Source: Candidatus Kaiserbacteria bacterium
GTDB lineage: Bacteria > Patescibacteriota > Minisyncoccia > Phycocordibacterales > UBA2100
Assembly: GCA_028286585.1 (NCBI GenBank)
Contig: JAQBRI010000009.1
Location: 28,010-92,009, forward strand
Direction of reading: 5' to 3'
Length of the DNA: 64,000 bases
This document shows, one piece after another, positions 3,433 through 57,439 of the stretch. The first letter of the stretch is position 1; each line of letters begins with the position of its first letter. The position numbers were made by a program, and so were the translations under genes. The notes beneath the pieces are model-generated. The model saw only the letters and a program-made list of their open reading frames with translations. It had not been told where the DNA came from and did not search any database.

Positions 3433-3445
3433 TTGTCATTATCAA

Positions 3446-3931: not shown

Positions 3932-3938
3932 CTTACAA

Positions 3939-4608: not shown

Positions 4609-4610
4609 TC

Positions 4611-5360: not shown

Positions 5361-5365
5361 GTATC

Positions 5366-6148: not shown

Positions 6149-6158
6149 CTCTACAAAT

Positions 6159-6482: not shown

Positions 6483-6484
6483 GG

Positions 6485-6997: not shown

Positions 6998-6999
6998 AT

Positions 7000-7707: not shown

Positions 7708-7737
7708 AGTTTGGGCAAGTTTGCATAGTATATCATT

Positions 7738-33809: not shown

Positions 33810-34454
33810 TTATTGTGTTTTGAAGGATGTTGGCCATGTCACTTGGACATTGCCGTTTGCGTCTCTTGTGTAGATCACATAATAGTATGTGGTATTTGAG
33901 GCCAAGTTCGAAATGGTAACGTCTTGTACGTTTTTGAGTGATGTGTCGGTGCTTGCTGCGCTGCCGTTGACGGTAACATCATTTGAGTTCTCGGTCATAA
34001 CGAGAGGTGAAGTACTGTAATAAACGGTTCCCTGCGCTGGCTTGTTGGTCTGCCAATGAATAATCGCATATCCCTGTCCTGTAGTGCTTACAGTAGCATT
34101 AGAGATAATAGGAGCACTTGTGATATTGGTAGTGCCTCCCATCTGCGTGTTAATTAGGCCGAGGGTAAGCGGGCCAACCCGACCTACTGCAGGAAGTCCA
34201 TTTCGCGTTTGAAAACGAGAAACTGCCGAAGCCGTTAAAGATCCAAAATAACCGGTAACCAACCCTTGTGGGTAAAGTGACGAATCTGCTGCGAGAAATG
34301 TCTGGAGTGAAGAAACATCACTACCACTCATTCCAACATCCAGCTGGCGAGTGAGCGTATCAGCATATGCATACGACGATAGAGCAACTATCATTGCTAC
34401 TCCGAACAAGGTCGAGAGTATTGTGGTTCGTTGAGAAATACTGTTTGTTTTCAT
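33810..34454 (-). CDS. Secreted protein with peptidoglycan-binding domain and C-terminal FN3-like beta domain
   Basis: Signal peptide, LVTGYFGSLTASAVSRFQTRNGLPAVG (PG_binding_1-like), C-terminal region with FN3-like strand pattern (TVYYSTS...NTTYYYVIYTRD). Confidence 0.5.
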   Translation of the reverse strand: MKTNSISQRTTILSTLFGVAMIVALSSYAYADTLTRQLDVGMSGSDVSSLQTFLAADSSLYPQGLVTGYFGSLTASAVSRFQTRNGLPAVGRVGPLTLGLINTQMGGTTNITSAPIISNATVSTTGQGYAIIHWQTNKPAQGTVYYSTSPLVMTENSNDVTVNGSAASTDTSLKNVQDVTISNLASNTTYYYVIYTRDANGNVQVTWPTSFKTQ

Positions 34455-36618: not shown

Positions 36619-38154
36619 TTAGCCCTCAGAATCAACATCTTTGATTGTTTGGTCGATATAGGTCTGTGCATGTATCAGACGTTCCTGCACCTTTTTTATA
36701 TATGCAGCATCCTCTGGAGCAAGCGTAGTCGCAGCATTACTCTTTTCGAGATCATTCTTTTGCTGTTCCAGTCCCTGTTTAATATTCAAGAGCTTTTCGT
36801 GCGTATCATTTTTAACTTTTTTTACTTCTTCGCTCATGTCTTTGCTGCGTAGTTTTTCGGAGCGACGTAAACGATTCCAGAGGACGAAGTTCATCAACAA
36901 GGAGAGAAGCGAGAGGAGTAATGCTGCCGGTAGTTCGAGTGATCCGTAATTAAATGTCCGAACTTGATCGAAGAAATTCGACTGTGCCGTATGCGCTATC
37001 GGCACCACAAAAGATAATTGATCGGAATCTGCGTAATTACCCGCATTATCAAACACTCGAAGGACTGCGGTATGCGTGCCGACCGACGATGTAACTGGAA
37101 TTCGGACAAAACCGCTTGCAAACTGTGCCTGAGATAATGTGTCAGTTGTCGTACCATCAATCAGCACCTGGTAGGTATTGATACCAGCATATGCATCCTC
37201 TGCGCTTGCCTGAATAAAGAGCGCACTACTTGTTGCATCATACGTAATGAGGGAATTAAGTACTGGAGCAGATGTGTCGATTTGGAGACGATATGACTTG
37301 ACACTACTCCAGCCGGCAGGCGTATGTGCACGAATATTAAAATACCAAACACCATCATTCACTGGATCAAATGTTTTTATTGAAATAGGCGAGTGATACA
37401 CCGCGGTTGGAATTTTACCGCTAGTTTGACTTAATTCTGCCTGCACTGAATCGATGTCACTTGAGACGGTCCATGATATTGCTGGAGACGCATTTGCATA
37501 CCAAACGCTTTCAGATGGATGCGTTGGTGATGAAATATCAATTGTTGTCGTCTCAGCTGCTGGCTTTACTGTACTTTTGACCGGTAGAACCGTTGGCTTA
37601 ACAACAGGAGAAGCAGGCGCCTTGGTTGCTGCTTCAGAAATACTAATGGTCGAGCTTTGTGATGAGCGAAGCACGTCGGTACCAAGACCATCGTTTGCGC
37701 GGACAGCACCGCCCACAACTGACACCGCAGCGCTACCGGCAGATTTTGCACGCAGCGTGACATTGAAAAGCCGTCCGTTTGTACCCTGATAACCCGGTGA
37801 TGGCACGCCGCCGTTAAACGTCACGCCGCCGTTACCGTCGGATGCTGGAGCGTCAATCCAAAGCGTGAACAAAGAAACATCTTTATTTATTGAAACAAGA
37901 TCGAACTTATCTCGTGGATATATAAGTGTGCCTTCTCCGCTATTTATTGCAACTCCTTCGCTATTAACGACAATACCCAAAGTCACAGTTGAACCAATAG
38001 TGATCGAACTTGCGCTAGGGACTATTGAGAGAATCGCAGCATACGACTGTGATGTACCGAGTACAGATAGTAGCAATACAAAAAATAAAATGCGTCCTGA
38101 AATATTAAAGCGTTGCATATTTTTTGCGGCGATATTGTAGCCAGATAAAAACAA
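36619..38154 (-). CDS. Membrane-anchored surface protein with N-terminal cohesin-like domain, Ig-like/FN3-like middle region, C-terminal TM and coiled-coil cytoplasmic tail
   Basis: Signal peptide. LSIVPSASSITIGSTVTLGIVVNSEGVAINSGEGTLIYPRDKFDLVSIN...GRLFNVTLRAKSAGSAAVSV follows the strand/Gly pattern of cohesin domains; this is visual recognition only. C-terminal LELPAALLLSLLSLLMNFVLW TM plus charged coiled coil. Confidence 0.45.
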   Translation of the reverse strand: MFLSGYNIAAKNMQRFNISGRILFFVLLLSVLGTSQSYAAILSIVPSASSITIGSTVTLGIVVNSEGVAINSGEGTLIYPRDKFDLVSINKDVSLFTLWIDAPASDGNGGVTFNGGVPSPGYQGTNGRLFNVTLRAKSAGSAAVSVVGGAVRANDGLGTDVLRSSQSSTISISEAATKAPASPVVKPTVLPVKSTVKPAAETTTIDISSPTHPSESVWYANASPAISWTVSSDIDSVQAELSQTSGKIPTAVYHSPISIKTFDPVNDGVWYFNIRAHTPAGWSSVKSYRLQIDTSAPVLNSLITYDATSSALFIQASAEDAYAGINTYQVLIDGTTTDTLSQAQFASGFVRIPVTSSVGTHTAVLRVFDNAGNYADSDQLSFVVPIAHTAQSNFFDQVRTFNYGSLELPAALLLSLLSLLMNFVLWNRLRRSEKLRSKDMSEEVKKVKNDTHEKLLNIKQGLEQQKNDLEKSNAATTLAPEDAAYIKKVQERLIHAQTYIDQTIKDVDSEG

Positions 38155-38974
38155 TCACCAACAAAATGAGTATAACACCTCCAATCAATACAAATTGCGT
38201 AGAAGATTGGGGAGAATATATTATTTTTACAACACTGTTTCCCGCGACATCAGTGGCGCGTACTCGTAACTCCGACATTCGTGTCTGATCAAGGAGCACG
38301 TAGTAACGGTCTGCGCGCACATACTCGTTTGAACCTTCTTGCACTTCATAGTACGCAATACCGCTACCACTATCTTGTGCAAAAAACGTCAGGAAATACT
38401 GATTGTTAAATAATGAAGGATCACGTCCTACTTCCACCGTAACAAACTCAGGTGGTGTCGTATCACTGAGTACGGACGATGTTGCGGTCGTGCTACTTTC
38501 AATACTAATACTTTGTGTAAATGGTTGTACTGCTACAGGTGTTCCTGAGCCATTGTCACTATATGCAACAACTTTGTTTGCAGAAAGTGTAATGTTTCCA
38601 GACGCCGCAACATGAGCAGTAAACGAAAAAAGAATTTTATCTTGATGAGCGGCAATACCTGTCTGCACACCTCCCAAAAAGTCGATAGTATGCGTATTAA
38701 CAACAAAATGCGGTGTGTCCGGCCACAGTGTCATAACAGACCCTCCGGTAGTTACAGAGTCAACTGATACATTCTGCGGAATCGAAAGAGAGCCTTCTAT
38801 TGCATTGATTGCATCATTATCGGTCGCAATATGAACCTCCGCTGTAAATTTCTGTCCGATGGCAGGAACTGATGGATTGAGCATTACCGTGAGATGCGCA
38901 GCATACGCGCTTGTTGGCAGCCGAAAGCTTAAGAATAAAAGAGCGAGAAATAGAGAGGTTAGATATTTTTTCAT
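38105..38974 (-). CDS. Membrane-anchored surface protein with cohesin-like domain (C-terminal TM anchor)
   Basis: Signal peptide. LTVMLNPSVPAIGQKFTAEVHIATDNDAINAIEGSLSIPQNVSVDSV...ILFSFTAHVAASGNITLSANKVVA is cohesin-like. C-terminal FVLIGGVILILLVIVFIWLQYRRKKY stop-transfer anchor. Confidence 0.45.
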   Translation of the reverse strand: MKKYLTSLFLALLFLSFRLPTSAYAAHLTVMLNPSVPAIGQKFTAEVHIATDNDAINAIEGSLSIPQNVSVDSVTTGGSVMTLWPDTPHFVVNTHTIDFLGGVQTGIAAHQDKILFSFTAHVAASGNITLSANKVVAYSDNGSGTPVAVQPFTQSISIESSTTATSSVLSDTTPPEFVTVEVGRDPSLFNNQYFLTFFAQDSGSGIAYYEVQEGSNEYVRADRYYVLLDQTRMSELRVRATDVAGNSVVKIIYSPQSSTQFVLIGGVILILLVIVFIWLQYRRKKYATL

Positions 38975-38992
38975 AGTGATAGTAAGTCGGAA

Positions 38993-41900
38993 TTATTTCT
39001 TCCAATGATACAGCAATATTGAGAAGTCGACTGAATCTACCTTTCCGTCGTGATTGAGGTCGACTTTATTATTTTTAAAAGGTGGCTTCGTCTTCCAATA
39101 TGCGAGAAGTATTGAGAAATCGATTCCATTCACTTTTCCATCTCCGTTGATATCGCCAATCACTTCAGTTGTAGCTGCTGGGGTAGCCACAGGTGGAGAA
39201 TTATCTCCTCCGCCTCCCCCACCTCCTCCACCTCCGCCACCGCCACCTCCATTACCTGGGTTTTGTACGGGAGCAGCAATTGCAGTAAATGACTGACTTG
39301 CACTTGATGATGCTGATCCATATTGTACTGCTACATGGAACCAATACGTTCCAATAACGGGAACAGTTGAAGAAAGTGTTGTATCAAAGTTCGCACCAGG
39401 CTGAATCAGTTTTGCTGCAGTTGAACTAAAAATATCATCACCACCTCCACAAGAATTGGTTGCAGAGTCGGTAACACACCACGTGTATTGATATTCGTAT
39501 GCTATAGAACCTTCGTTTGTTATACGCACTGCTGTGGCAATGCTTGGTACCGTCAATCCACTAAAACTCTGGATCAGAACTTGTGCTGGCGCTCCCGGTG
39601 TTGCACTCACAGGAATTGTTGTCGTGCCTCGTCCAACAAGATTTTTTGCTGATATACGGAAATCATATGAATTATTGTTGGATAGACTAGTTACCATGGT
39701 TGTTGGTGTCGTACTAATACCGTCAGAAAATATAGACCATGTTCCGCCCGAAGAAAGTTTGTATTCAACTACGTAATCAGTCACAGGTGAACCACCGTTT
39801 GATATTGGCGCCGACCATGAAAGGTTGATACTGCTGTCTTGTACAATTGCGGCGAGGTTTATTGGGGCACCGGGCACACTTGCTGGCGTCGCAGCATTAC
39901 TTGTACCGGAGCTGGTACTCGTGCCAACTGCGTTTGTTGCAGTGACAGTAAATGTGTATGTTGTTCCGTTTGTGAGGCCTTGTATAGTAGCTGAAGTTCC
40001 ATTTGTTGTAGTACTAAATACTCCACCATTTGAAGTGACGGTATAGCTTGTTATAGGAGATCCTCCATTAAAACCGGGCGCAGACCACGTAAGATTTACA
40101 CTACTGTCTGCAATTGCTGCAGCAAGATTTGTTGGCGCGTCAGGAACTGTAGCTGGGGTGACCGAATTCGTTGCGGCTGATGAAATACTTGTTCCAATTG
40201 CGTTGGTTGCCGTCACTGTAAACGTGTAGGCTGTTCCGTTTGTTAAACCAGTTACCGTTATTGGTGAACTTCCGCCAGTTGCGGTGAAGTTGCCGATATT
40301 TGAAGTAACGGTATAAGACGTAATTGCAGAGCCACCGGTAAATGATGGTGGGCTAAATGTAATAGTCGCAGTACCGTCACCGCCAACTGCCGCTACGCTC
40401 GTTGGTGCACTTGGCCCACCTGCAGGTACAACCGAATTACTTGTTCCAGAACTAGTACTTGTTCCAACATTGTTTGTTGCAGTTACTGTAAAGGTGTACG
40501 TTGTTCCATTCACGAGTCCAGTAATAGTGATCGGTGAACTTCCACCTGTTGCAGTAAATCCTCCTGTATTTGATGACACGGTGTAGTTAGTTATTGCAGC
40601 ACCGCCGTTACTAACGGGCGGTGTAAAGGAAACAGTTGCTTGGCCGTTTCCAGCAACTGCAGAAATCGAAGTGGGTGCATCAGGTACTGTGGCAGGAGTA
40701 ACGGAGTTACTTGTACCCGATGAAGTACTCGTTCCAATACTATTTGTTGCAGTGACAGTAAATGTGTATGTCGTGCCATTTGTGAGACCAGTAATTGTAA
40801 TTGGTGAAGAGCCACCTGTTGCCGTAAATCCTCCTGTATTTGATGACACGGTATAGTTTGTTATTGCAGCGCCGCCGTTACTTACAGGCGGAGTAAATGT
40901 AATTGTTGCTTGGCCGTTACCACCAACGGCAGAAATACCAGTCGGAGAATTAGGAACAGTTCCTGGTATTACTGAATTACTTGCGGATGATGCGGTACTT
41001 GTTCCTGCAGCATTCGTAGCAGTGACTGTAAATGTGTACGTAGTTCCGTTGGTAAGACCGGTCACAGTGATCGGAGAAGAACCACCTGTTGCGGTAAGGC
41101 CGCCACTACTTGATGTGACAGTGTAACTCGTAACGGCAGCTCCTCCATTATTTACTGGTGGAGTAAATGTAATTGTTGCCTGACCATTACCGCTAACTGC
41201 GGTCACGCTTGTCGGCGCGTTTGGCGTCGTCGCGGGAACAACGGTGTTACTTGTGCCCGATGGCGTACTGGTTCCAACTGCATTTGTGGCAGTCACAGTA
41301 AATGTGTAGGTTGTTCCATTTGTAAGACCGGTAATTGTAATTGGTGAAGATCCGCCGCTCGCGGTGAAGCCGCCGGTGTTTGATGACACGGTGTAGTTAG
41401 TTATTGCAGAACCGTTGTTACTTCCCGGTGTAAAGGAAACCGTAGCTTGACCATTACCGCTTACTGCCGTGACAGCAGTAGGTGCATTAGGAACAGTAAC
41501 AGGAGTAACTGAGTTACTTGCGGACGACGCAGTACTGGTTCCAACATTGTTTGATGCTGTTACGGTAAATGTGTAGGTTGTACCGTTAGTAAGGCCAGTA
41601 ATTGTAATTGGGGAGCCGCCGCCTGTTGCAGTAAAGCCGCCGGTGTTTGATGACACGGTGTAGTTAGTTATTGCAGATCCCCCGTTACTGACTGGCGGAG
41701 TAAATGTGATTGTTGCTTGGCCGTTTCCAGCAACTGCAGAAACGCTTGTTGGGGCACCCGGTGCAGTCGCAGGTGTCACAGAATTGCTTAGTGTCGAGGA
41801 GGTACTTGTGCCAACGCCATTAGTTGCAGTAACGGTAAATGTGTATGCGGTGCCATTGGTAAGACCGGTCACAGTGATTGGTGAGCCACTTCCGCTTGCT

Positions 41901-44900
41901 GTAAACCCGCCTGAGTTTGATGTCACCGTGTACGTTGTGATTGCAGCACCACCGTTACTAACAGGCGGAGTAAATGTAATTGTTGCTTGGCCGTTACCTG
42001 CTGTAGCGACTGCTCCCGTAGGTGCATTTGGAACAGTTGCTGGTGTCACAGAATTGCTTAGTGTCGAGGAGGTACTTGTGCCAACGCCATTAGTTGCAGT
42101 AACGGTAAATGTGTATGCGGTGCCATTGGTAAGACCGGTCACAGTAAGTGGAGAACTGATACCAGTGACATTAAAGCCGCCAATGTTTGATGTGACCGTG
42201 TAGTTTGTAATCGCAGAACCGTTGTTACTTCCTGGTGTAAAGGTAATTGTTGCCTGACCATTTCCACCAACTGCAGTAACGCTTGTTGGAGCACTCGGGA
42301 CACCTGCCGGCGTGATTGAATTGCTTATTCCCGAAGATGTACTTGTTCCTGCAGAATTATTTGCAGTTACAGTAAACGCATAGACTACTCCGTTTGAGAG
42401 ACCGGTCACTGTGATTGGTGAAGAACCACCTGTTGCAGTAAAGCCTCCAACATTTGAAGTAACAGTGTACGTTGTGATTGCAGCACCGCCATTACTTACG
42501 GGTGGAGTAAACGAAATTGTTGCCTGCGTATCCCCTCGCACTGCTGTCACACTTGTCGGAGCATCTGGAATTGTTGCTGGAGTGACCGATGCGCTCGCAC
42601 TCGAACTAGCACTCGTTCCAACTGAGTTAGTAGCAGTTACTGTAAATGTATATGCCGTTCCGTTTGTTAAACCAGTTACCGTGATTGGTGAAGATCCGCC
42701 GGTTGCAGTAAAGCCACCTGTGTTTGAAGACACTGTATATGTTGTGATTGCAGCGCCACCGTTACTTACAGGCGGAGTAAAGGTTACGGTCACTTCTCCA
42801 TTGCCTCTCGTGACGGTTCCTATTGTCGGCGCGTTCGGAGTAGTAGCAGGAACAACCGTGTTACTCGTTGCCGATGCGGTACTTGTTCCTGCTGAGTTAG
42901 TTCCCGTTACGGTAAAGGTGTACGTTGTTCCATTTGTGAGACCAGTAATTGTAATTGGCGAAGATCCGCCGGTTGCAGTAAAGCCACCTGTGTTTGATGA
43001 GACCGTGTACGTTGTGATTGCAGATCCCCCATTACTTACAGGTGGTGTAAAGGAAACAGTTGCTTGACCATTTCCAGCGACTGCAGAAACGCTAGTTGGG
43101 GCACCCGGTGCAGTCGCCGGAGTTATTGTATTACTGGTGCCAGAATTTGTACTCGTACCGATTGCGTTTGTTTCGGTGACAGTAAATGTGTATGCCGTTC
43201 CGTTTGTTAAACCTGTTACAGTTATTGGTGAAGAGCCACCAGTTGCAGTGAAGCCGCCGGTGTTTGATGAGACTGTATAGATCGAAATACTTGAACCATT
43301 GTTATTGCCAGGTGTAAACGAAATTGTTGCTTGGCCATTTCCGGCAACTGCGGTTACGCTTGTTGGAGCACTCGGGACTCCCGCAGGTGTGATAGCATTA
43401 CTCGTACCAGAGGCGGTACTTGTTCCCGCCGAGTTAGTAGCAGTTACTGTAAAAGTATAAATCGTACCGTTGGTAAGACCGGTTATTGTAATCGGTGAAG
43501 ATCCACCAGTTGCTGTGAGGCCTCCCACATTTGATGAGACTGTGTATGTTGTTACAGCAGAGCCGCCGTTATTCACTGGCGGAGTAAACGATATGGTAGC
43601 CTGCGTGTCGCCGCGAACTGCGCTAACACTTGTCGGCGCGTCCGGTACTGTAGCTGGTGTCACCGAACTACTAGCACTCGAACTTGCGCTCGTTCCAACC
43701 GCATTTGTTGCGGTTACTGTAAACGTGTACGCTGTGCCATTCGTTAGACCTATTAGTGTTATTGGTGAAGAGCCGCCAGATGTTGTAAAGCCGCCTGTGT
43801 TTGATGAGACGGTGTAAAGAGTAATTGGTGAACCGCCTGTATTTCCTGGTGTAAAAGAAATGGTTACCTGCCCATTACCCGCCGTCCCTATTACACTAGT
43901 AGGTGCATCAGGAATTGTCGCCGGTGTCGCAGAATTTGTTGCGTTCGAGGCCGTACTCGTACCAACTGAGTTAGTAGCAGTTACTGTAAATGTGTATGCC
44001 GTTCCGTTTGTTAAACCTGTTACAGTTATTGGTGAACTACCACCTGTTGCAGTGAATCCTCCTGTGTTTGATGTAACGGTGTAGCCAGTTATTGCAGAAC
44101 CTCCGTTACTTACGGGTGGTGTAAATGTAATTGTTGCCTGAGTGTTACCACGTGTCGCGGTTCCTATAGTTGGTGCGTCTGGCACAGTTGCAGGAACCAC
44201 ACTATTACTTGTACTTGATGGAGTACTCGTTCCCAACGCACTACTTGCCGTCACTGTAAACGTGTACGTTGTTCCGTTCACAAGTCCAGTTATTGTAATT
44301 GGTGAAGAGCCACCTGTTGCAGTGAATCCCCCAGTGTTTGATGAGACCGTGTACGTTGTGATTGCAGATCCCCCATTACTTACTGGTGGTGTAAACGTAA
44401 TTGTTGCTTGGCCATTACCGCCGGTTGCAGTGACACTAGTTGGGGCACCCGGTGCAGTCGCCGGTATCACACTGTTACTAGCAATTGACGCAGTGCTTGT
44501 ACCAACGGCGTTCGTTGCCGTAACTGTAAACGAATAGGAAATTCCATTGGTAAGGCCGGTCACAACAATTGGTGAGCCACTTCCCGTTCCAGTAAAGCCG
44601 CCAACGTTTGAAGTAACCGTGTACGTTGTGATAGCAGAGCCGCCGTTATTCACTGGCGGAGTAAACGATACAGTAGCTTGAGTATCACCGCGAACTGCAC
44701 TCACGCCGGTTGGCGCACCTGGCACTGTTGCAGGAACAACACTATTACTCGTTCCCGAAGGAGAGCTTGTACCAGCGGAATTAGTAGCAGTTACCGTGAA
44801 TGTGTACGTTGTGCCATTAACAAGTCCGGTAATCGTAATCGGAGAACTTCCGCCGGTTGCGGTAAAACCGCCGGTGTTTGAAGACACTGTATATGTTGTG

Positions 44901-50900: not shown

Positions 50901-53900
50901 CCGCCGCCGGTACCTCCAGTTCCTGCTACTCCGCCTGCATGCCCTCCTGTTCCCAATGTTCCGTCTCCGCCATTTCCACCTGCGCCTCCCGTTCCGCCAC
51001 TTCTTCCGCTTGCGGTAAGACTACCAATAACGATGTCATTAATAAGGACTCCTGAGTTATCGCCAACAAGTCCACCGATGTATTCGGCACCGCCAACTCC
51101 ACCGATACCTCCGGTCCCTCCCGTTGCACCGGTGCCTCCGGCAATATTTCCCGAAGCACCAGCGGCACCTCCCGCTCCCGCGCCACCCGCGGCTCCTCCC
51201 ACAACACTAATAGAAGTAATTGTGTATGTTACGTCTCGAATGATTCCAGTATTGAAACCCATGATGCCTCCGCCCGCAGCAAGTCCGCCGGTACCACCGG
51301 CACCTCCTGCGCCGCCCGCTCCACCAATTGCTCCGGCTGTACTGCCGCCGGCACCACCCACTCCACCTGTGACGCCAGTACCTCCGGCACCTCCCGTTGA
51401 AGAAATAGTTCCAGTAGTATTTGGAAGACTGATTGTTGTTCCTAGGACACTATCGTTACCAATCACTCCTCCTGCGTATGACGCACCACCGACTCCTCCT
51501 GCACCTGATGTAATTCCCGCAGCTCCTGCAACACCAGCGCCCGATGTTCCAGGAGTTCCGGCAAGTCCACCATTTCCCGCAGCTCCGCCAAGAGCAACAG
51601 CATTGCCCGCAGCATATGAATCAGGACTTACGACCGCTGCATTAAATCCAACAAGGCCGCCCGCAGCGGCAAGTCCTCCGGCTTCGCCACTCAATCCGGC
51701 GACACCTCCCGTTGTACCAGCCGATCCGCCGGCAAACGCACCCGAAGAATTTCCTCCGTTTCCGGTTGTCGCTCCCGCCGCTCCTACTCCACCGGTTGCA
51801 AGTGCGTTACCTGATGCGTGCGAACCATTTTGAATTATTCCGTTTGTCGTATTAAAACCGACGAGTCCGCCCGCGTACGCAAGACCTGCGGCGTTTGATG
51901 CTGCAGCACTAGCCGAAGTATTTCCTCCAGCGCCGCCTGTTGTACCAGCTCCACCATTTCCTCCGCTGCCGCCGGCACCTCCCGCCCCGCCCGTCGCTGA
52001 GGCATTGCCTGTTGCGTACGAACCATTAATTACTCCACTACTATTTCCCGCGAGTCCTCCTGCGTACGCTGCCTTACCCAAAGCAACAGCAGCGCCTGCG
52101 CCGCCCGCAGCACCAGTGCCTCCGACACCTCCGTTACCACCGCTTCCAGTTACACCCGCGGTTGAAGTTGCGTTAATAGTCGCGTGTGATCCCAAAATGA
52201 CACCGCTTGTTGAATTGTTTGCGACGAGTCCGCCGGCGTATGCAAACCCGCCAAGCGAAACACTTGTTCCGCCAACTCCACCAACTCCGCCCAAAGCACC
52301 ACTTCCACCTGTGCCCCCTGCTCCACCATTTGCGCCTATTCCACTTGCTCCACCTTGTGAGATTACAGAACCGGATTCTATATATGCATTTATTATTGTC
52401 GAAGTATTCAAGCCGACGAGACCACCAGCAAACGAGTCCCCACCCGCGCCAGCAGTTCCCCCTGTTGCACCCACCGCACCAACATGTGATGACCCTCCTG
52501 CTGATCCGTTTCCAGCAACACCCGCTGCTCCACCATTTTTTCCAGTTGATCCGGTTGCAACAATACTTCCGGACGCGTATGAATTTATTATTTCGTTTAA
52601 GTTGTTACCCACGAGTCCGCCCGCGTATGCAATAGCACCAGCGCCACCGTTTCCGCCAAGTCCACCTGCTGCTGCAGTACCCGAGTTAAACGTTGCAGTT
52701 GTAGCGCCTCCCGCACCACCTGCACCAGCATTTCCTGGCGTGCCTCCTACAGATGTGACATTGCCCGTTGAGTATGAAGTGGTTCGAATGATACCGCCGT
52801 TTTGTCCGACAAGACCTCCAGCCGTACTGATACCACCCGCGCCACCGTTGCCTCCGGTCGCTCCAACTCCACCAATCGCATTTGTTCCGCCGGTGCCTCC
52901 TGCACCACCCACTCCGCCAATGCCACCAGTTCCTCCGGTTACTGTCGTGCTACCGACCGCATAACTTGTAGTGACTGTTCCCAATGAAATGATACCAACG
53001 AGTCCTCCACCAAATGCGGCACCTCCTGCACCTCCCGTTCCACCCAATGCTCCAGCTCCACCTGTTGTACTTGCTGCTCCAGTTCCACCGGCACCTCCTG
53101 CACCTCCAATTCCGCCCGTGCCTCCAAGAGAATTAACGGTGCCCGTTGCGTAGGAAGTTAAAATTTCTCCAGTCGTCAAAAATCCAACCAAGCCTCCAAC
53201 ATACGCAATACCTCCGACAGCTCCTGTTCCTCCGGTAATGCCGGCCAAACTTGTACCACCCGCGCCACCTGCTGCTGCAGCACCGCCCGCGCCTGCTGTG
53301 CCGCTCACGTTCCCTGTTGAAAAATCATTGGTCAATGTTGATCCAGTGTTGTTTCCTACAAATCCGCCCGCATACACAATACCCCCCGCTGTTGCGGTAC
53401 CCGCAGCTCCGGCAAGTGCACCGGTGCCGCCCGCACCCCCTGCTCCTGCTGCACCTCCTGCGCCCGCAACACCTGTAACTGATCCAATAGTGTAATTACT
53501 ATCAGTAATTGTGAGTGCATTATTTCCAGCAAGTCCTCCAACATACAGAATTGCACCTGCTCCTCCAATACCACCCGCAAGACCGGCGAGTCCGGTGAGT
53601 CCTGTAACTCCGTTTGCTCCGGCACCTCCTGCGCCGCCGGTTCCATTTACAATATTTTGTGCACTCGATGTTTGAATGATTCCTGTATTACTTCCCACGA
53701 GTCCGCCGGCATATGTTGAAAGCACGTTTGCAGATCCGCCGGTGCCCGATGCACCGCCCGCACCTGACGTTCCACTTGAACCTTTGGTACCGCCCGCGCC
53801 TCCCGTGCCGCCAACTCCACCCGTGCCGCCAACAACAGTCACTAATCCAGTATTTGAAAAAGATGAAATAATTATTCCCGAGTTAAGACCAACAAGTCCT

Positions 53901-56818
53901 CCCGAATATGCTGCGCCTCCTGCGCCGCCTGCTGCTCCTCCTCCGCCTGTTCCTCCTATGTGTGCAGTTCCAAGAGATGCGTCACCTCCAGTTCCACCAA
54001 CTTGTCCAACTTTTCCCGTTGACCCAGTTGCAGTAACGGCGCCTGTCGCAAAGACCGCTGTTGTCGTACCAGTAATAATACCGCCAAGGTTATTTTGTCC
54101 AACGAGTCCGCCCGCATATGCTATAGCACCTGCTCCACCTACTCCGCCTGCACCACCAGTTGCTGCAGTGAGCGTAGTTGCAACAGCAGAAGCGCCGGCA
54201 GTTGCGCCAGCCGAACCATTGCCCGGTGTTCCTCCGGTTGATTGCACGACGCCTGTTGCGTTACTGCCCGTTTGAATTATTCCCAAGTTGTTTCCGACAA
54301 GTCCTCCGACATACGAAACACCGCCGGCTCCACCTGTGCCGCCGGCGCCTCCTGCTCCACCAATTGCAGCACCGCCTCCAGCACCACCTACGCCCGCAGT
54401 GCCGGCTGCTCCGCCCAATCCGCCGGTTCCGGTTACTGTTCCTGTTGCGGTAACAGAAGTCAGGATTCCTGCATTCACCCATCCGGCAAGGCCACCAACA
54501 TAATCAATACCTCCCGCTGCTGCAAGACCAACAGCTCCGCCTGCGCCTCCAATACCTGTTCCAGCATTAGCACCTCCGGCACCACTATTTCCAGAAGCAC
54601 CTCCTGCGCCTCCCGTTCCTATAACATTTACACCACTCGTTGCAGCTGTAATATTTCCTTGTTGAGAATAACCAACGACTCCACCAACGTAGACTGTTCC
54701 TCCCAATGCTGCCGCATTCGAAACACTTGCTCCGCCCGCGCCTGCCGTAGTCGCGCCGCTCGTTGTGTTTCCGCCTGCTGCCGCATTACCTGCTGCGCCT
54801 CCTGCACCTCCTACACCTGTTACATTTCCAGAAACACTTACGTTTGAAATCGTACCAATGTTGTATCCGACCAGTCCTCCCACATACATAGTTGCTGCAG
54901 CAGTTCCTGCCGTACCGGTTCCTCCAGCAGTTGGTGTCGTACCTGCAGTTCCAGCAGTTCCAGCGGTACCGGCAACACCCGCCGTACTTGTTGCACTAAT
55001 CAACTCGCCCGAGAGAATAACGTTTTTGATAGTGTTGTTAGAAAAACCAAAAAGACCAACATAGTTGAGCGTTGTCGTACTTATAAAAAGATTACTGATG
55101 GTAAAGTTTGCACCATCAAAGATTCCACTAAAGTTGGTTGTGTTATCGCCTATCGGCACAAAGCCTGCACCCAAGTTCCATCCCGATGTTACCGTCGCAT
55201 TAATATTATTATTAAGTTTGTATGAGTTGGTAAGTCCGGTTCGAATACCCTGCAAACCATATACGTCGTACGTAATAAAAGGATCGGTACTCACGCCAAT
55301 GCCGGTATATCGTCTAAAGGTTCCCGCTGTTACCGAAAAGTTTCCCGTCGCAGCAAATGTATTGGTGCCGGGATTGTTTGCAACAAAAGTTGCGGCTGAT
55401 GATTGCACATAATTTCCCGACAAACCTCCAGCGTTCGAAATCGTAAGACTCGCATTTTGTGTAATGGTACCAGTGTAGCCGGCGATCGTGAGCGATCCAA
55501 TAGTAAAAGCAGTATCAATGTTTGATGCGTTTGATCCTGTATCAAATATCACATCGGTGTTTACATCAGGAGTAGAAGCACCGGACGCGCCGTTAGATGT
55601 TGCCGACCAGCTTCCGGTCGAGCTCCACAAAGCGCCCGAAGCACCAACCCAGTATCGTGTCGTCGGGTCGACGACATAATCAATATCAACATTTCCAATA
55701 ATCTTAAGATCAAACTCGTCGGTCGGAGTTTGAAGATTGGTCAAAAGAATACGGTACTTTCCATCATGATCAATTGCATCAAACGTGCCGACAAGTACAC
55801 CATCAAGTGTGTACACTTCTACGCGCACCGATGCACCATCGTGTGACCGAGCATACAACGTAATGTCTTTTGTATTGTCGAGCAGCTGTGCAAACGTAAC
55901 GCGCACAAACTGTCCGTCAGAAATATTTGCATACTGCTGGTCTTGCGATTGCAAGAGTGGATACACATCGCCAATTGTATTTTTGTTTGCATCAAGTTGC
56001 AGTGCCTTCGAAATATAAATAATGGTAAATGTCTGAGTCGACAAGTGCGGCACGATCCACGCAACATGATCTATGTATCCGTTACCATCGTCATCAAACG
56101 ATTGAAACTCCATAACTTGATTTGCATTGTTCTGCCAATTTATTTTTATCTGATCTTCTTGACCAACCTTAAATATTTCTGGAATAGCAGTTCGCACCGG
56201 TACGTTCAAGATTGGTGTTATTTCATTTTCAAGATCCGCGACAGATACGACAACTGTCTTGCCATTGTCGTTTGTGTGTTCGGTGATCGTAGGCACCTGC
56301 ACCAGAATCGGTAACGCAAGATCCGAAGTCGATGCAGTATTTTGTGAATTTAAAAAAGTATCAGTCGACGTTGCTGTCAAAATTGCAGCACCACCTGAAC
56401 TAGTAAAAATATTTTGCACAGAACTCGATGCGCTGGTGTTATCAGAAATTATTTCTGTCGAAGATGCTTGAGTAAATGAAGTATCAGTTGAAGTTGCAAT
56501 ACTACTGCTCGCATTAATTACTTCACTTTGTAAACTATCGGTAGAAGTCGTTGCGGGGGGCTGTATTTTAGCATCACCCGAATCCTGTGAAACTTGGCTT
56601 CCCTGCCCAACCTGGTCGTCGGAGCTGGTAGCGACTGGCGCAGGAGTAGTCGCATCCTCTGTTGAAGTTACGATTACAGTATTTGTATCAGTGACAATTG
56701 GCGTTGCATCATCAGCATGCGTCGATACAACGTTTCCAAATAATATTCCAAGTACAAAAAAAACCCCTACAACAATTTGTAGCGGTAATCGGAATATTCT
56801 AAAAAATGGCTCAATCAC
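38993..56818 (-). CDS. Giant (5941 aa) cell-surface protein: signal-anchor, Ser/Thr-rich stalk, beta-rich N-domain, about 3200 aa of Gly-rich GLUG-like repeats, 21 fibronectin type III domains, unknown C-domain, poly-Gly linker, C-terminal type-I dockerin
   Basis: Single uninterrupted ORF with GTG start. Repeated YVGGLVG.N.G.I..SYATGNV..GG.GG.GGAGG units. FN3 units PNAPTSVTAV.GNGQATITFTPPVSNGG.AIT.YTVSSNTGGFTATGGSSPITITGLTNGTTYTFTVTATN repeated 19 times almost verbatim plus 2 divergent. C-terminus DINGDGKVNGIDFSILLAYWK...DLNHDGKVDSVDFSILLYHWKK is two calcium-binding dockerin repeats (DxNxDGxVNxxD). Preceded by 16 consecutive Gly. Confidence 0.85.
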   Translation of the reverse strand: MIEPFFRIFRLPLQIVVGVFFVLGILFGNVVSTHADDATPIVTDTNTVIVTSTEDATTPAPVATSSDDQVGQGSQVSQDSGDAKIQPPATTSTDSLQSEVINASSSIATSTDTSFTQASSTEIISDNTSASSSVQNIFTSSGGAAILTATSTDTFLNSQNTASTSDLALPILVQVPTITEHTNDNGKTVVVSVADLENEITPILNVPVRTAIPEIFKVGQEDQIKINWQNNANQVMEFQSFDDDGNGYIDHVAWIVPHLSTQTFTIIYISKALQLDANKNTIGDVYPLLQSQDQQYANISDGQFVRVTFAQLLDNTKDITLYARSHDGASVRVEVYTLDGVLVGTFDAIDHDGKYRILLTNLQTPTDEFDLKIIGNVDIDYVVDPTTRYWVGASGALWSSTGSWSATSNGASGASTPDVNTDVIFDTGSNASNIDTAFTIGSLTIAGYTGTITQNASLTISNAGGLSGNYVQSSAATFVANNPGTNTFAATGNFSVTAGTFRRYTGIGVSTDPFITYDVYGLQGIRTGLTNSYKLNNNINATVTSGWNLGAGFVPIGDNTTNFSGIFDGANFTISNLFISTTTLNYVGLFGFSNNTIKNVILSGELISATSTAGVAGTAGTAGTAGTTPTAGGTGTAGTAAATMYVGGLVGYNIGTISNVSVSGNVTGVGGAGGAAGNAAAGGNTTSGATTAGAGGASVSNAAALGGTVYVGGVVGYSQQGNITAATSGVNVIGTGGAGGASGNSGAGGANAGTGIGGAGGAVGLAAAGGIDYVGGLAGWVNAGILTSVTATGTVTGTGGLGGAAGTAGVGGAGGGAAIGGAGGAGGTGGAGGVSYVGGLVGNNLGIIQTGSNATGVVQSTGGTPGNGSAGATAGASAVATTLTAATGGAGGVGGAGAIAYAGGLVGQNNLGGIITGTTTAVFATGAVTATGSTGKVGQVGGTGGDASLGTAHIGGTGGGGAAGGAGGAAYSGGLVGLNSGIIISSFSNTGLVTVVGGTGGVGGTGGAGGTKGSSGTSGAGGASGTGGSANVLSTYAGGLVGSNTGIIQTSSAQNIVNGTGGAGGAGANGVTGLTGLAGLAGGIGGAGAILYVGGLAGNNALTITDSNYTIGSVTGVAGAGGAAGAGGAGGTGALAGAAGTATAGGIVYAGGFVGNNTGSTLTNDFSTGNVSGTAGAGGAAAAGGAGGTSLAGITGGTGAVGGIAYVGGLVGFLTTGEILTSYATGTVNSLGGTGGIGGAGGAGGTGAASTTGGAGALGGTGGAGGAAFGGGLVGIISLGTVTTSYAVGSTTVTGGTGGIGGVGGAGGTGGTNAIGGVGATGGNGGAGGISTAGGLVGQNGGIIRTTSYSTGNVTSVGGTPGNAGAGGAGGATTATFNSGTAAAGGLGGNGGAGAIAYAGGLVGNNLNEIINSYASGSIVATGSTGKNGGAAGVAGNGSAGGSSHVGAVGATGGTAGAGGDSFAGGLVGLNTSTIINAYIESGSVISQGGASGIGANGGAGGTGGSGALGGVGGVGGTSVSLGGFAYAGGLVANNSTSGVILGSHATINATSTAGVTGSGGNGGVGGTGAAGGAGAAVALGKAAYAGGLAGNSSGVINGSYATGNASATGGAGGAGGSGGNGGAGTTGGAGGNTSASAAASNAAGLAYAGGLVGFNTTNGIIQNGSHASGNALATGGVGAAGATTGNGGNSSGAFAGGSAGTTGGVAGLSGEAGGLAAAGGLVGFNAAVVSPDSYAAGNAVALGGAAGNGGLAGTPGTSGAGVAGAAGITSGAGGVGGASYAGGVIGNDSVLGTTISLPNTTGTISSTGGAGGTGVTGGVGGAGGSTAGAIGGAGGAGGAGGTGGLAAGGGIMGFNTGIIRDVTYTITSISVVGGAAGGAGAGGAAGASGNIAGGTGATGGTGGIGGVGGAEYIGGLVGDNSGVLINDIVIGSLTASGRSGGTGGAGGNGGDGTLGTGGHAGGVAGTGGTGGGGGVVYIGGLAGQGNGNIASSSSSGGTITVTLGGSGGVGGTGGTGGAGGSGSGRNGTGGTGGAGGVAGPIYSGGAIGLNSLADVIIESLSSSDDVTITEGSGGAGGAAVAGTNGAVGGTGGAGGGGGALNFGAYAGGLEGFNSGTGQSINNSRASGNITVTGGAGGAGAVGGAGGSGVTNSITGGAGAVGGIGGAGGFANGGGLLGFTNTNVFIGNSFTSGNVTVLAGVGGAAGNGGAGGAGGTASAGGAGATGGAAGLGGASYAGGLVAAAAASGGNIATSSSTGIIRGTSGAGGASGSGGAGGAGGSASLGGAGGNGAVGGGGGVNYTGGLVGDSPTTIQSSFHTTGAVSAFSGAGGAAGAGGTAGASGNISAGTAAAGGAGASGGVAGAVNVGGLVGRNNTVAGIINNSYATSDVNATGGSGGAGGVGGAGGDGTLATNHLGGTGGVGGAGGAGGGLVAGALQAGGLVGQNFVGTITNSYSQTGTVTVTGSAGGASAQGGAGGVGTGTALYGIAGAGGAGGAGGGVYVGGLVGYSIGVIQTSYSKTALNVTGGAGQNGTAGRSGAAGGGAAGSAGGAGGASSLIHVGGLVGNNASEIIASYASVDAGSGKGNISVAGGAMGNGANGGAGGSGLAAGSAGGAGGVGGVGGAGGGTFVGGLAGFNSAAGIITTSYSDTIAISGTEQTAGTGGIGGAGGTGVGAFAGGTGTAGGAGGAGSARSYGGLVGDNLGTIQNNSYSSISFSVTGGTGGTGGVGGAGGTSGSTIASGIAAAGGAGGAGGAGGVTYGGGLVGRINATTQTLQILNSYATGNATVTGGTGGTGGAGGVGGDGSTGTVTHAGSAGALGGSAGIGGDGNAGGLVGYTNVTSGIVNYSFDYATGNASSTGGNAGTAGTSGNGGASRTTVAGGAGGGAVLAAAGGSGFAGGLIGLNFVTTGGQSDIVNSYATGAVSATGGIGSTGNTGGVGANGAASSVGGAGGAGGIGGAGGDGNAGGLAGFTGATTGANNVLTSYATGNIVTSTSGTGGNGGSAGASGTSGSAAVGAATGGGGTSGAGGAAYAGGLVGRTSATASNNLIITSSYSTDNVIANGGTSGNGAAGVIGGAGGSGSIGGTGGLGGATGVGGAAYAGGLVAFNFGTIQGNSYATGNATSTSGTAGTPGAGAAGGASGSVSGSTAASGGAGGAGGAGGAAYVGGLIAHNTAIGVVLNSFALGSVVSIAKNGATGATGGAGGDGSLGTSAHVGGTGGTGGAGGIGGASYSGGLIGNNVNALNTIATSYAIGASVTGTSGVGGSGGTGGIGGLPGAAGVGGAGGAGGAAVSGGVLYTGGLIGFNDGTVLSGSYASTTVLGSAGAGGVGGTGGAGVAGGIATAANGATGGAGGSAGAAGVGGIAYAGGFNGYNNTGRTIKDSYANSSVTVTGGAGGVGGLGGNGAAGGAGIVAGTGGTGGIAGARTAGGVGGIAYGGGFVGQNNGGTISTSYGTGAVNVNGSAGGVGGAGGVGGNGGAGGPTGAGGIGGAMGATAAGGAGGAAYAGGLVGQNASGSTVLSSWSSGNVSLVGGAGASAGLSGTVSTGGAGGTLAGGAGGASVAGGNGGAGGASFAGGLMGADLATGTFNTSYSSGNVSITGGNGGNGAVGGKGGNGGVGGSGGSGNGGAGATGGTGGTGGVGGDVTGGGLVGQNTGVITNTYARGNVTITAGTPGTGAIGGAGGNAGAAGGGVAGVNGTGATGGAGGAGGNAYAGGLFGSNNAVITNTYATGVPTGTKTSGATGGTGGAAGTGGTGGAAGASGATGAAALQYVGGIVGNPIGGSYVSDYWDNVTSGKSNGVGNGADPAGMTGTTTTALKTQATYTNWDFVSPVWAITPGTTYAYLNYQTVPNAPTSVTAVPGNGQATITFAPPVNSGGSPITNYTVSSNTGGFTATGGSSPITITGLTNGTTYTFTVTATNASGTSISSGTSNAVTPATAPGAPTIGTATRGNGQATITFTPPVSNGGTAITTYTVSSNTGGFTATGGSSPITITGLVNGTTYTFTVTATNSAGTSSPSGTSNSVVPATVPGAPTGVSAVRGDTQATVSFTPPVNNGGSAITTYTVTSNVGGFTGTGSGSPIVVTGLTNGISYSFTVTATNAVGTSTASIASNSVIPATAPGAPTSVTATGGNGQATITFTPPVSNGGSAITTYTVSSNTGGFTATGGSSPITITGLVNGTTYTFTVTASSALGTSTPSSTSNSVVPATVPDAPTIGTATRGNTQATITFTPPVSNGGSAITGYTVTSNTGGFTATGGSSPITVTGLTNGTAYTFTVTATNSVGTSTASNATNSATPATIPDAPTSVIGTAGNGQVTISFTPGNTGGSPITLYTVSSNTGGFTTSGGSSPITLIGLTNGTAYTFTVTATNAVGTSASSSASSSVTPATVPDAPTSVSAVRGDTQATISFTPPVNNGGSAVTTYTVSSNVGGLTATGGSSPITITGLTNGTIYTFTVTATNSAGTSTASGTSNAITPAGVPSAPTSVTAVAGNGQATISFTPGNNNGSSISIYTVSSNTGGFTATGGSSPITVTGLTNGTAYTFTVTETNAIGTSTNSGTSNTITPATAPGAPTSVSAVAGNGQATVSFTPPVSNGGSAITTYTVSSNTGGFTATGGSSPITITGLTNGTTYTFTVTGTNSAGTSTASATSNTVVPATTPNAPTIGTVTRGNGEVTVTFTPPVSNGGAAITTYTVSSNTGGFTATGGSSPITVTGLTNGTAYTFTVTATNSVGTSASSSASASVTPATIPDAPTSVTAVRGDTQATISFTPPVSNGGAAITTYTVTSNVGGFTATGGSSPITVTGLSNGVVYAFTVTANNSAGTSTSSGISNSITPAGVPSAPTSVTAVGGNGQATITFTPGSNNGSAITNYTVTSNIGGFNVTGISSPLTVTGLTNGTAYTFTVTATNGVGTSTSSTLSNSVTPATVPNAPTGAVATAGNGQATITFTPPVSNGGAAITTYTVTSNSGGFTASGSGSPITVTGLTNGTAYTFTVTATNGVGTSTSSTLSNSVTPATAPGAPTSVSAVAGNGQATITFTPPVSNGGSAITNYTVSSNTGGFTATGGGSPITITGLTNGTTYTFTVTASNNVGTSTASSASNSVTPVTVPNAPTAVTAVSGNGQATVSFTPGSNNGSAITNYTVSSNTGGFTASGGSSPITITGLTNGTTYTFTVTATNAVGTSTPSGTSNTVVPATTPNAPTSVTAVSGNGQATITFTPPVNNGGAAVTSYTVTSSSGGLTATGGSSPITVTGLTNGTTYTFTVTATNAAGTSTASSASNSVIPGTVPNSPTGISAVGGNGQATITFTPPVSNGGAAITNYTVSSNTGGFTATGGSSPITITGLTNGTTYTFTVTATNSIGTSTSSGTSNSVTPATVPDAPTSISAVAGNGQATVSFTPPVSNGGAAITNYTVSSNTGGFTATGGSSPITITGLVNGTTYTFTVTATNNVGTSTSSGTSNSVVPAGGPSAPTSVAAVGGDGTATITFSPPSFTGGSAITSYTVTSNIGNFTATGGSSPITVTGLTNGTAYTFTVTATNAIGTSISSAATNSVTPATVPDAPTNLAAAIADSSVNLTWSAPGFNGGSPITSYTVTSNGGVFSTTTNGTSATIQGLTNGTTYTFTVTATNAVGTSTSSGTSNAATPASVPGAPINLAAIVQDSSINLSWSAPISNGGSPVTDYVVEYKLSSGGTWSIFSDGISTTPTTMVTSLSNNNSYDFRISAKNLVGRGTTTIPVSATPGAPAQVLIQSFSGLTVPSIATAVRITNEGSIAYEYQYTWCVTDSATNSCGGGDDIFSSTAAKLIQPGANFDTTLSSTVPVIGTYWFHVAVQYGSASSSASQSFTAIAAPVQNPGNGGGGGGGGGGGGGGGDNSPPVATPAATTEVIGDINGDGKVNGIDFSILLAYWKTKPPFKNNKVDLNHDGKVDSVDFSILLYHWKK
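39205..39252 (-). repeat. (GGN)16 simple repeat encoding a poly-Gly linker before the dockerin
   Basis: Plus strand cctccgcctcccccacctcctccacctccgccaccgccacctcc; protein GNGGGGGGGGGGGGGGGGDN. Confidence 0.8.
39700..45265 (-). repeat. Tandem array of about 20 near-identical repeats of about 270-285 bp, each encoding one FN3 domain
   Basis: DNA visibly repeats: the triplet sequence ...gtaactgtaaatgtgtacgttgttccatttgtgagaccagtaattgtaattggtgaagagccacc... recurs at about 275-bp spacing through the region. Confidence 0.85.
45400..55000 (-). repeat. Degenerate tandem repeats (about 180-210 bp units) encoding Gly-rich GLUG-like modules; extreme strand compositional skew (coding strand GGN-rich)
   Basis: Plus strand is dominated by CCNCC/GCNCC runs (antisense of GGN codons), generating many spurious Pro/Ala-rich plus-strand ORFs. 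Confidence 0.8.
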
Positions 56819-56953
56819 TGGGTAATTATACTATGTACCCTGCCCTAGATAGGGGGTCAAATGTTGATAAGTGTATAAGTCCTAATGCACCTTCTCTACG
56901 CCTTTTTGTATTCGTTCCAAACAGTAGTTGTTGGGCTTGTCTAACTAGTCGGA

Positions 56954-57439
56954 TCAATCAACCTCCTCATTGTCGAGCGACAAATCTTTGCTGTTTTCAG
57001 AAATTTGAGCCGATGTTCGTAGGTACCCGATAAGGTCTCGAGTCGCTACATTTGCGATTAGCGGCTTCATTGCGAGCTTCATTAACTTTTCGATTCTAAA
57101 GATGCCATCTTCTCCTTTTTCGGTAAGAGCAAGTACCCGCTCACGCCGGTCTTCACCCTGAGAAACTTTTATCCATTTGTTTTTCTCCATCGAAATAATC
57201 GCTCTACTTACTAGTGATGGCTGTACTCCAAGCGCTGCTGCAACTTCGCTCGCGCGCATACTTGTGTGTGAGTGCGAAAGAATACCAAGGATGGCCCATT
57301 CCAAATTCGTAAGACCTTGCGGCTTGAGGACCTCGGCACTCACCTGCTTGAACACTCGATACCCTTTCGCCTGGATAAGACCAATGTCGTACGTTGTGTG
57401 ATCTTTAAACAAAAGTGCGATATCAGAAAATATACCCAT
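56954..57439 (-). CDS. MarR-family transcriptional regulator
   Basis: Winged-HTH region LTNLEWAILGILSH...MRASEVAAALGVQPSLVSRAIISMEKNKWI typical of MarR; immediately upstream of the giant gene, same strand. Confidence 0.75.
   Translation of the reverse strand: MGIFSDIALLFKDHTTYDIGLIQAKGYRVFKQVSAEVLKPQGLTNLEWAILGILSHSHTSMRASEVAAALGVQPSLVSRAIISMEKNKWIKVSQGEDRRERVLALTEKGEDGIFRIEKLMKLAMKPLIANVATRDLIGYLRTSAQISENSKDLSLDNEEVD

Follow-up and report, generated by a model that had tools for sequence, protein, structure and literature searches.

A conserved dockerin-cohesin gene triad in a Candidatus Kaiserbacteria genome and its likely role in anchoring surface proteins

In the present study, we analyzed a 64,000-nucleotide stretch of a Candidatus Kaiserbacteria genome (contig JAQBRI010000009.1, positions 28,010 to 92,009), hereafter called the window. 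In this window, three consecutive open reading frames (ORFs) on the minus strand encode, in order, a giant protein of 5941 amino acids (aa), a protein of 289 aa and a protein of 499 or 511 aa. An earlier note on this DNA, made from the letters alone, had proposed that the giant ends in a dockerin and that the two smaller proteins hold it at the membrane through cohesins; the ORF list and the translation returned the same three ORFs with the same coordinates and strand. Our results are best explained by a conserved "dock-and-display" operon, made up of these three genes, in Patescibacteria, the Candidate Phyla Radiation (CPR).

Three linked genes and their conservation in relatives

The three genes lie in the window as follows.

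38993 to 56818, minus strand: giant gene, 5941 aa, GTG start, 538 kDa
38105 to 38974, minus strand: small cohesin membrane protein (predicted), 289 aa, NCBI JWO50_731
36619 to 38118, minus strand: large cohesin membrane protein (predicted), 499 aa from the ATG at 38118, JWO50_730

The stop codon of the giant gene is separated from the ATG of the 289-aa gene by a spacer of 18 nucleotides (nt), and the 289-aa and 499-aa genes share 14 nt. A simple scan revealed no convincing terminator between the three genes. The shared operon that had been proposed was thus borne out by the tight coupling. For the large cohesin gene, the ORF list gives an alternative TTG start at 38154 (36619-38154, 511 aa), and the NCBI version is the ATG form of 499 aa. 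JWO50_731 and JWO50_730, the NCBI records that match the two small proteins at 100%, are both annotated as "hypothetical protein". The mass computed for the giant, 538 kDa, falls below the 0.6 MDa quoted earlier.

Related loci were collected by scanning one genome per GTDB species with the alignment of the large cohesin protein as the query, which yielded 73 loci with 10-kb flanks. The loci were typed with our own hidden Markov models (HMMs) for the dockerin, for a cysteine-containing domain in front of it (the Cys-domain) and for the two cohesin types. It was observed that a dockerin ORF lies immediately upstream of the cohesin gene or genes in 61 of the 73 loci, or 61 of the 68 testable ones when five loci cut by a contig end were excluded. 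The order dockerin, small cohesin, large cohesin was found in 57 of those 61 loci, and the gene gaps in the syntenic loci were mostly -10 to +10 nt. The synteny that the earlier note had asked to be checked in related genomes is therefore conserved. It is the strongest evidence for the three-gene unit, and it makes a cognate dockerin-cohesin pairing much more likely.

The records of the 73 loci are labeled essentially throughout as Patescibacteria, including Kaiser-, Adler-, Nomura-, Falkow-, Wolfe-, Taylor- and Buchananbacteria, Paceibacterota and Parcubacteria. Many other records bear the label "uncultured Candidatus Saccharibacteria" and a handful are labeled Gammaproteobacteria or Flavobacteriaceae, all labels being given as deposited. 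The same gene order, together with the tag of Cys-domain, poly-Gly linker and dockerin, was also found in metagenome contigs (L001, L004-L006 and L008).

The giant protein and its C-terminal tag

From the N- to the C-terminus, the giant consists of a signal peptide, about 600 residues without assignment, GLUG-type repeats, 21 FN3 domains, the Cys-domain, a poly-Gly linker and the dockerin. All of the following features lie on the minus strand.

56711 to 56818, minus strand: predicted signal peptide, residues about 1-36, with a hydrophobic core at residues 4-22 (hydropathy and sequence)
45449 to 54961, minus strand: GLUG-type Gly/Ala-rich repeats, residues about 620-3790, Pfam Glug E=5.8e-5
39599 to 45271, minus strand: FN3 array, residues about 3850-5740, 21 tandem domains with a 90-aa period
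39266 to 39589, minus strand: Cys-domain, about 108 aa, VRITNEG..YEYQYTWCV..NSCGGGDD
39206 to 39250, minus strand: poly-Gly linker of 15 Gly joining the Cys-domain to the dockerin (from the translation)
38996 to 39160, minus strand: type I dockerin, two 22-residue repeats, Pfam Dockerin_1

The dockerin matched Pfam Dockerin_1 (PF00404) with 46.5 bits and E=4.4e-12, against a cut-off of 22.9, and the match recurred in the 2941-aa C-terminal fragment of the giant (E=1.2e-10). Its two repeats, DINGDGKVNGID followed by FSILLAYWKT and DLNHDGKVDSVD followed by FSILLYHWKK, each contain an EF-hand-like loop with D1, N3, D5, G6 and D12, and then a predicted helix, DFSILL. The two loops, at 39154 and 39061, were the only EF-hand loops found in all six frames of the window. 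The two-repeat pattern is kept in at least 98 relatives, and the window's dockerin is 45-70% identical to theirs. These results confirmed the two-repeat type I dockerin described before; the strings quoted for it are present, and the Dockerin_1 HMM check was passed. No catalytic domain was matched by Pfam in this dockerin protein, the only one in the window, which carries FN3 and GLUG repeats instead; by our own HMMs, the cargo of related loci likewise consists of repeats or unknown domains.

The rest of the tag is equally regular. The Cys-domain had no Pfam match. Our own HMM recognized it in the window with E=7e-53, more than 150 homologues are known from the protein search described below, and it precedes the dockerin in essentially all dockerin ORFs of related loci in which that region is intact. 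The poly-Gly linker has 4-20 Gly in all related loci and is written in mixed GGN codons. In the GLUG-type region, our own HMM, motif counts and composition indicated about 49 units of about 65 aa over about 3,100 residues, with 35% Gly. Because the Gly (GGN) codons of these repeats lie on the minus strand, the guanine-cytosine (GC) content rises to 0.55-0.58 at window positions 46000-54000, compared with about 0.43-0.45 elsewhere, and the GC skew is around -0.3. The FN3 array was matched by Pfam fn3 with E=1e-175 in 21 stretches, and its core motifs recur every 89-90 aa. At the other end of the protein, the sequence STHA/DD resembles a signal peptidase I site, after which the giant would be cleaved.

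When the last 199 residues of the giant were used as the query of a protein search, more than 150 relatives were found, most of them about 325-340 aa long; NCBI names the tag relatives "dockerin type I domain-containing". The typical small relative has a cleavable signal peptide with an A-x-A site, one FN3 domain, the Cys-domain, poly-Gly and the dockerin. Since most relatives are small, the conserved unit is the tag plus the two cohesin proteins, with the giant as one of the cargo types that recur. The emphasis previously placed on a giant adhesin was therefore too narrow: the unit is real, but its cargo is usually about 330 aa long and is a giant in some lineages. Measured from stop to stop, the smallest cargo ORF has 250 aa and the largest exceed 3,300 aa; eight of these ORFs are cut off only by the 10-kb flank. 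According to our own HMMs, the dockerin ORFs comprise 11 GLUG+FN3 giants (that of the window included), 12 FN3-only proteins and 45 with other N-terminal regions. A constant tag on a variable cargo is what would be expected of an anchoring tag; the small cargo proteins, with a cleavable signal peptide and no other anchor, would need one.

Upstream of the giant gene, a TATAAT box was observed about 7 nt before the GTG (window about 56826-56860, minus strand), with TTGACC further upstream. Either the giant's mRNA has almost no leader or translation starts at a different codon. A gene for a MarR-family regulator (window 56954-57439, minus strand) is found directly upstream of the giant gene. In contig L001 (3790-4281), a MarR gene also flanks the triad, but on the other side and on the opposite strand. 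The dockerin gene of L004 (8560-9115) is frameshifted inside a G8 homopolymer at the CGGGDD motif. Phase variation by slippage in G homopolymers was considered and rejected, as G runs are avoided in nearly all loci, both at CGGGDD and in the poly-Gly linker; the frameshift thus looks like an isolated sequencing error or a pseudogene.

Cohesin domains of the two membrane proteins

The 289-aa protein consists of a signal peptide, a cohesin domain, an Ig-like domain, a transmembrane (TM) helix and a basic tail. The larger protein has a signal peptide, a cohesin domain supported by several lines of sequence comparison, an extra domain, an Ig-like domain of the Big_13 type (E=8.5e-7), a TM helix and a charged tail of 90 aa.

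38495 to 38902, minus strand: predicted cohesin domain (residues about 25-160) in the 289-aa protein
38216 to 38467, minus strand: Ig-like domain of the 289-aa protein, DTTPPE...SGIAYYEV...AGN, DUF7743/OmpL47-barrel-like
38135 to 38212, minus strand: C-terminal TM helix of the 289-aa protein, residues 255-273 by hydropathy, followed by YRRKKYATL
37624 to 38037, minus strand: cohesin-like domain (residues about 28-165, numbered from the ATG) in the large protein
36622 to 36948, minus strand: TM helix (residues 391-413) and predicted cytoplasmic tail (414-499) of the large protein, by hydropathy

The structure of the 289-aa protein was modeled with AlphaFold2 on an alignment of 17 homologues. 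The model, with a predicted local distance difference test score (pLDDT) of 90, contains helices at residues 2-17 and 259-288 and beta domains at 26-159 and 176-252. When it was compared with the PDB by Foldseek, the top matches were almost all cohesins, with E down to 7e-9 and a target template modeling score up to 0.77. Through this confident model and the Foldseek matches, the nine-stranded beta-sandwich fold of a cohesin is established in silico for the 289-aa protein, in agreement with the structure check that had been suggested. Pfam Cohesin was matched by 6 of the 17 members of the family, and the three best PDB matches of the family profile were cohesins of R. flavefaciens scaffoldins (E=2e-4). 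The Ig-like domain appears as beta strands in the model and gave sub-threshold matches to both DUF7743 (E=8e-4) and NCBIfam barrel_OmpL47 (E=1.5e-5).

In canonical cohesins, strands 3, 5, 6 and 8 form the dockerin-binding sheet (8-3-6-5). Assuming this canonical topology, we found that these four strands were more conserved across 66 small cohesins (0.56) than strands 1, 2, 4, 7 and 9 (0.41; one-sided Mann-Whitney p=0.002). The invariant residues of the small cohesins are located in β3 (N57, G61), β5 (W84, P88), β6 (F99, G101, G102) and the β8-β9 loop (NDGxGT).

The N-terminal domains of the two small proteins are homologous, with 28% identity and a BLASTP E value of 2e-7. Pfam Cohesin was matched by 10 of 20 N-terminal domains of the large family (best 1.8e-7), and NCBI names homologues of the large protein "cohesin domain-containing protein"; the full-length family profile matched only Ig-like domains in the PDB. 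Taken together, paralogy, family-level Pfam matches, weak profile matches and the naming of homologues support the assignment of this domain as a cohesin. Compared with the small protein, the large protein has an additional domain of about 110 aa and the 90-aa tail after the TM helix, as indicated by profile alignment and hydropathy. The sequence RLRRSEKLRSK after this helix follows the positive-inside pattern. The tail is 37% charged and contains one Pro and a weak heptad signal, and similar tails are found across the large-protein family. Of the cytoplasmic coiled-coil tail claimed earlier, the charged 90-aa tail is thus present, but the heptad pattern is weakly supported; a coiled coil is plausible.

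Hydropathy supported a signal peptide and a C-terminal TM anchor in both proteins, and in the 289-aa protein both also appear as AlphaFold2 helices. Pfam and NCBIfam searches found no SLH domain in either. Compared with a cellulosomal anchoring scaffoldin, which has an SLH or sortase module, an enzyme cargo and a cognate dockerin in the same genome, the proteins of the window share the dockerin and lack the other two. The architecture of an anchoring scaffoldin claimed for them therefore holds as a cohesin with a surface anchor, but the anchor is a TM helix and neither an SLH nor a sortase module.

Three loci (L039:1076-3538, L062:9104-11473 and L064:7495-9876), which represent at least two lineages, carry an in-frame fusion of the small and the large cohesin gene, an ORF of about 800 aa with two cohesin domains. 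In these fused genes, the TM helix and basic residues of the small protein run into the signal-like hydrophobic segment of the large one, and the resulting topology is consistent. Such fusions are Rosetta-stone evidence that the small and large cohesin proteins act together. A different arrangement was observed in L025, which has two large-type cohesin genes in tandem.

One locus, L082, differs in several respects. Its dockerin, a subtype (6001-7844), reads NLVDFSI...VVDFSI where the usual form is NSVDFSI...SVDFSI (positions 10-11 of each repeat). In the small cohesin that follows, the motifs that are elsewhere conserved as GGVPGGF and YLNDGKGT read GGTTESF and YRGDGAGT, and a large cohesin is absent. 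This subtype may represent a specificity switch, a possibility raised by a single example. Type IV pilus genes (PilM-like and T2SSE/PilB ATPase; L082:9875-12984) lie 3-6 kb downstream of its dockerin-cohesin genes. In L007 (8768-9994), L008 (1820-3042) and L082 (4788-5991), two conserved small genes precede a small-cargo operon; the product of one is secreted and about 180 aa long, that of the other has about 205 aa and ends in a TM helix, and they are 57-74% identical between loci. No homologues of these two genes were found beside the operon of the window. The window itself contains, upstream of the operon, two defence-like genes on the minus strand. One (60629-62635) encodes a Schlafen-group-3 helicase with a fused Peptidase_S24 domain, and the other (63077-63985) is a fragment matching an AbiEii toxin nucleotidyltransferase. 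A small envelope protein with PG_binding_1 and an FN3-like domain (33810-34454, minus strand) is encoded a few kb downstream of the cohesin genes.

Proposed anchoring, alternatives and known systems

Based on these results, we consider it likely that one or both membrane cohesins tether the secreted giant by binding the dockerin at its C-terminus. The N-terminal signal peptide would export the giant, which would otherwise be free. Its C-terminal tag would combine the small Cys-containing domain, a flexible poly-Gly linker and a type I dockerin of the calcium type. The two downstream genes would yield type I membrane proteins, each with one cohesin and one or two Ig-like spacers outside the cell and a C-terminal TM helix, and these would be the receptors. 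The dockerin would plug non-covalently into the cohesin of one or both, so that the 538-kDa GLUG/FN3 fibre would have its C-terminal end at the cytoplasmic membrane and its N-terminal region pointing outwards, where it may act in adhesion. The two cohesin proteins probably work as a pair, to which the larger one would add a cytoplasmic helical tail.

A more far-reaching proposal, which we regard as possible but doubtful, is a modular display system throughout the Patescibacteria lineage. A universal tag would mount interchangeable proteins, from 30-kDa single-FN3 proteins to half-megadalton fibres, on a two-subunit TM cohesin receptor, and the tail of the larger subunit would couple the fibre to the cell interior, mechanically or informationally. 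This would be a main way in which wall-poor, sortase-independent ultra-small cells build their attachment apparatus.

Several observations weigh against the tethering of the giant through a dockerin-cohesin pair. Pfam Cohesin (PF00963), the HMM check suggested in the earlier note, did not match either window protein even at E<=1, and NCBIfam and direct PDB sequence searches (phmmer) of both found no cohesin. The profile of the large-family N-terminal domains matched the solved cohesins found with the small-family profile only weakly (E about 0.05). The cohesin-like domains reported earlier therefore stand by the fold of the 289-aa protein and, for the 511-aa protein, by homology and family Pfam matches, but not by a direct HMM match; the cohesin identity of the window proteins is argued from fold and relatives. 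In addition, the assignment of conserved strands to the binding sheet presumes the canonical topology. When the dockerin and the cohesin were modeled by AlphaFold2 as a fused chain with an unpaired alignment, the dockerin had a pLDDT of 47-68 and formed strands rather than helices, and the predicted template modeling score was 0.41, indicating an unreliable model that speaks neither for nor against the pairing. Covariation, measured as normalized mutual information with average product correction over 66 pairs, reached a maximum of 0.15 between dockerin and cohesin, compared with 0.37 for the Ig domain used as a control; phylogeny dominates the signal, which therefore counts in neither direction. 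Identity among the dockerins (45-70%) far exceeds that among the cohesins (25-59%), which is unusual for specific pairs that co-evolve, and the tether does not account for two different cohesins beside one dockerin. With only one or two Ig domains between it and the membrane, a cohesin would lie within or beneath the cell wall. Finally, seven loci (L024, L025, L044, L068, L071, L076 and L078) have a large cohesin and no dockerin ORF within 10 kb, and two loci have a small cohesin alone.

Three other explanations were weighed against the proposed tether. One is that the proteins are co-expressed envelope components without any lock: the cohesin-like domains would bind carbohydrate, the cell wall or a host surface, and the dockerin would be a calcium-binding or stabilizing module or would have another partner. 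The observations just listed bear on it, and the genes would be neighbours through a shared envelope structure; with the synteny favouring a cognate pair, we judge this explanation rather unlikely. A second explanation accepts the lock but places it in trans. The giant would be kept on its own cell by an uncleaved signal-anchor, and its dockerin would plug into the cohesins of a neighbouring cell of the same species, resulting in cell-cell cohesion. The hydrophobic segment at residues 4-22 could serve as such an anchor, its cleavage being a prediction, and a flexible poly-Gly linker with a terminal dockerin would suit a distal "hook"; moreover, dockerins and cohesins conserved across lineages would permit promiscuous pairing. 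However, the hydrophobic segment is followed by a typical signal-peptidase site (STHA/DD), the small homologues have clear A-x-A sites and, at about 330 aa, cannot bridge cells, and stoichiometric expression from one operon suits assembly in cis. We therefore consider docking in trans improbable.

The third explanation concerns the anchor. If the small cohesin protein were covalently linked to the wall by a sortase-type signal, as ScaE of R. flavefaciens is, the fibre would be wall-anchored. The hydrophobic helix followed by RRKK does resemble the end of a sorting signal, and NCBIfam LPXTG_anchor gave a weak match (E=0.41). This match, at 11.4 bits, is below the cut-off of 15.9; no LPXTG-like motif was found in the 289-aa protein, and the alignment of the small family contains no conserved motif before the helix. 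In the large protein, the 90-aa tail behind the helix rules out a sorting signal, and in the fused genes the small protein's helix is internal. Sortase anchoring was thus rejected as very improbable, and a TM anchor is retained in the proposed tether.

CPR bacteria account for much of bacterial diversity, and the majority are believed to live on other cells; how they build and hold their surface structures is little understood. If the proposed tether is correct, a calcium-dependent plug and socket mounts very large surface proteins on the membrane, and a recognizable tag would mark displayed proteins in any CPR genome. Cohesin-dockerin biology would then extend from enzyme assembly to the anchoring of surface fibres in a major uncultivated lineage, and a natural family of transmembrane single-cohesin receptors would be added, including a natural two-cohesin fusion. 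A highly conserved dockerin and short modules make the pair readily testable with recombinant proteins, without culturing.

Among known systems, CttA-ScaE of R. flavefaciens is the closest functional analogue: an adhesin with a dockerin is bound there by a neighbouring single-cohesin anchor that is linked by sortase. Both systems have a non-enzymatic surface protein with a C-terminal dockerin preceded by a module, and the gene for a single-cohesin anchor immediately downstream. In contrast, ScaE is attached to the wall by sortase and CttA binds cellulose within a cellulosome system, whereas the present proteins have a TM helix and no LPXTG. The window system also differs in having two cohesin proteins, a poly-Gly linker in place of the rigid X-module, no carbohydrate-active domain found, and a CPR host. 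OlpA and OlpC of Clostridium (Acetivibrio) thermocellum (PDB 3ul4, 4dh2) combine a single type I cohesin with SLH domains, which fix them to the wall polymer, and take enzymes as cargo; here the anchor is a TM helix, the cargo is FN3/GLUG, and the identity is about 12-15%. Non-cellulosomal pairs link soluble enzymes together in the glycoside-hydrolase toxin complexes of C. perfringens (2vo8, 2w1n, 2jh2, 2o4e) and occur within one archaeal protein in Archaeoglobus fulgidus (2xdh); neither serves to hold a giant repeat protein at a membrane.

Non-cellulosomal cohesins and dockerins are well known, with mostly unassigned functions (PMC5244752, PMC9012536). In Firmicutes, proteins with a single cohesin and a C-terminal TM helix (H. 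luporum, C. cibarium and Lachnoclostridium sp. MSJ-17) have been proposed as non-SLH anchoring scaffoldins (PMC11557425). They resemble the present proteins in this architecture and in occurring also in presumably non-cellulolytic organisms, and are likewise genome predictions. Their partners are unclear or dispersed, whereas here about 90% of the testable loci have the dockerin gene directly upstream, there are two paralogous cohesins, and the hosts are Patescibacteria. Giant dockerin-bearing ORFs have been reported in Omnitrophota (PMC10066038; bioRxiv 10.1101/2023.11.21.568195), and an essential dockerin protein, SEML1_0315, in the Saccharibacterium Southlakia (PMC10633639). These are very large or essential dockerin surface proteins of ultra-small, host-dependent bacteria, comparable to the window's giant, and a role in adhesion has been suggested for them. 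The Omnitrophota proteins differ in having many internal dockerin-like units rather than one C-terminal tag, and no cognate cohesin operon has been described for them; SEML1_0315 was rejected as the same system, as it stands alone between unrelated genes with no cohesin neighbours.

In open-access papers and preprints, dockerins of CPR or other ultra-small bacteria receive only brief mention, and we found no description of a cognate cohesin-dockerin operon in such bacteria. Dockerin-cohesin anchoring of the present kind is apparently undescribed for CPR bacteria in the open-access literature, and it is not a new category. The novelty claimed earlier holds to that extent but was somewhat overstated; TM cohesin anchors have been proposed in Firmicutes, and homologues of the present proteins are already named at NCBI. 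What makes the present system valuable is how widely and regularly the operon occurs across Patescibacteria, and how easily it could be tested.

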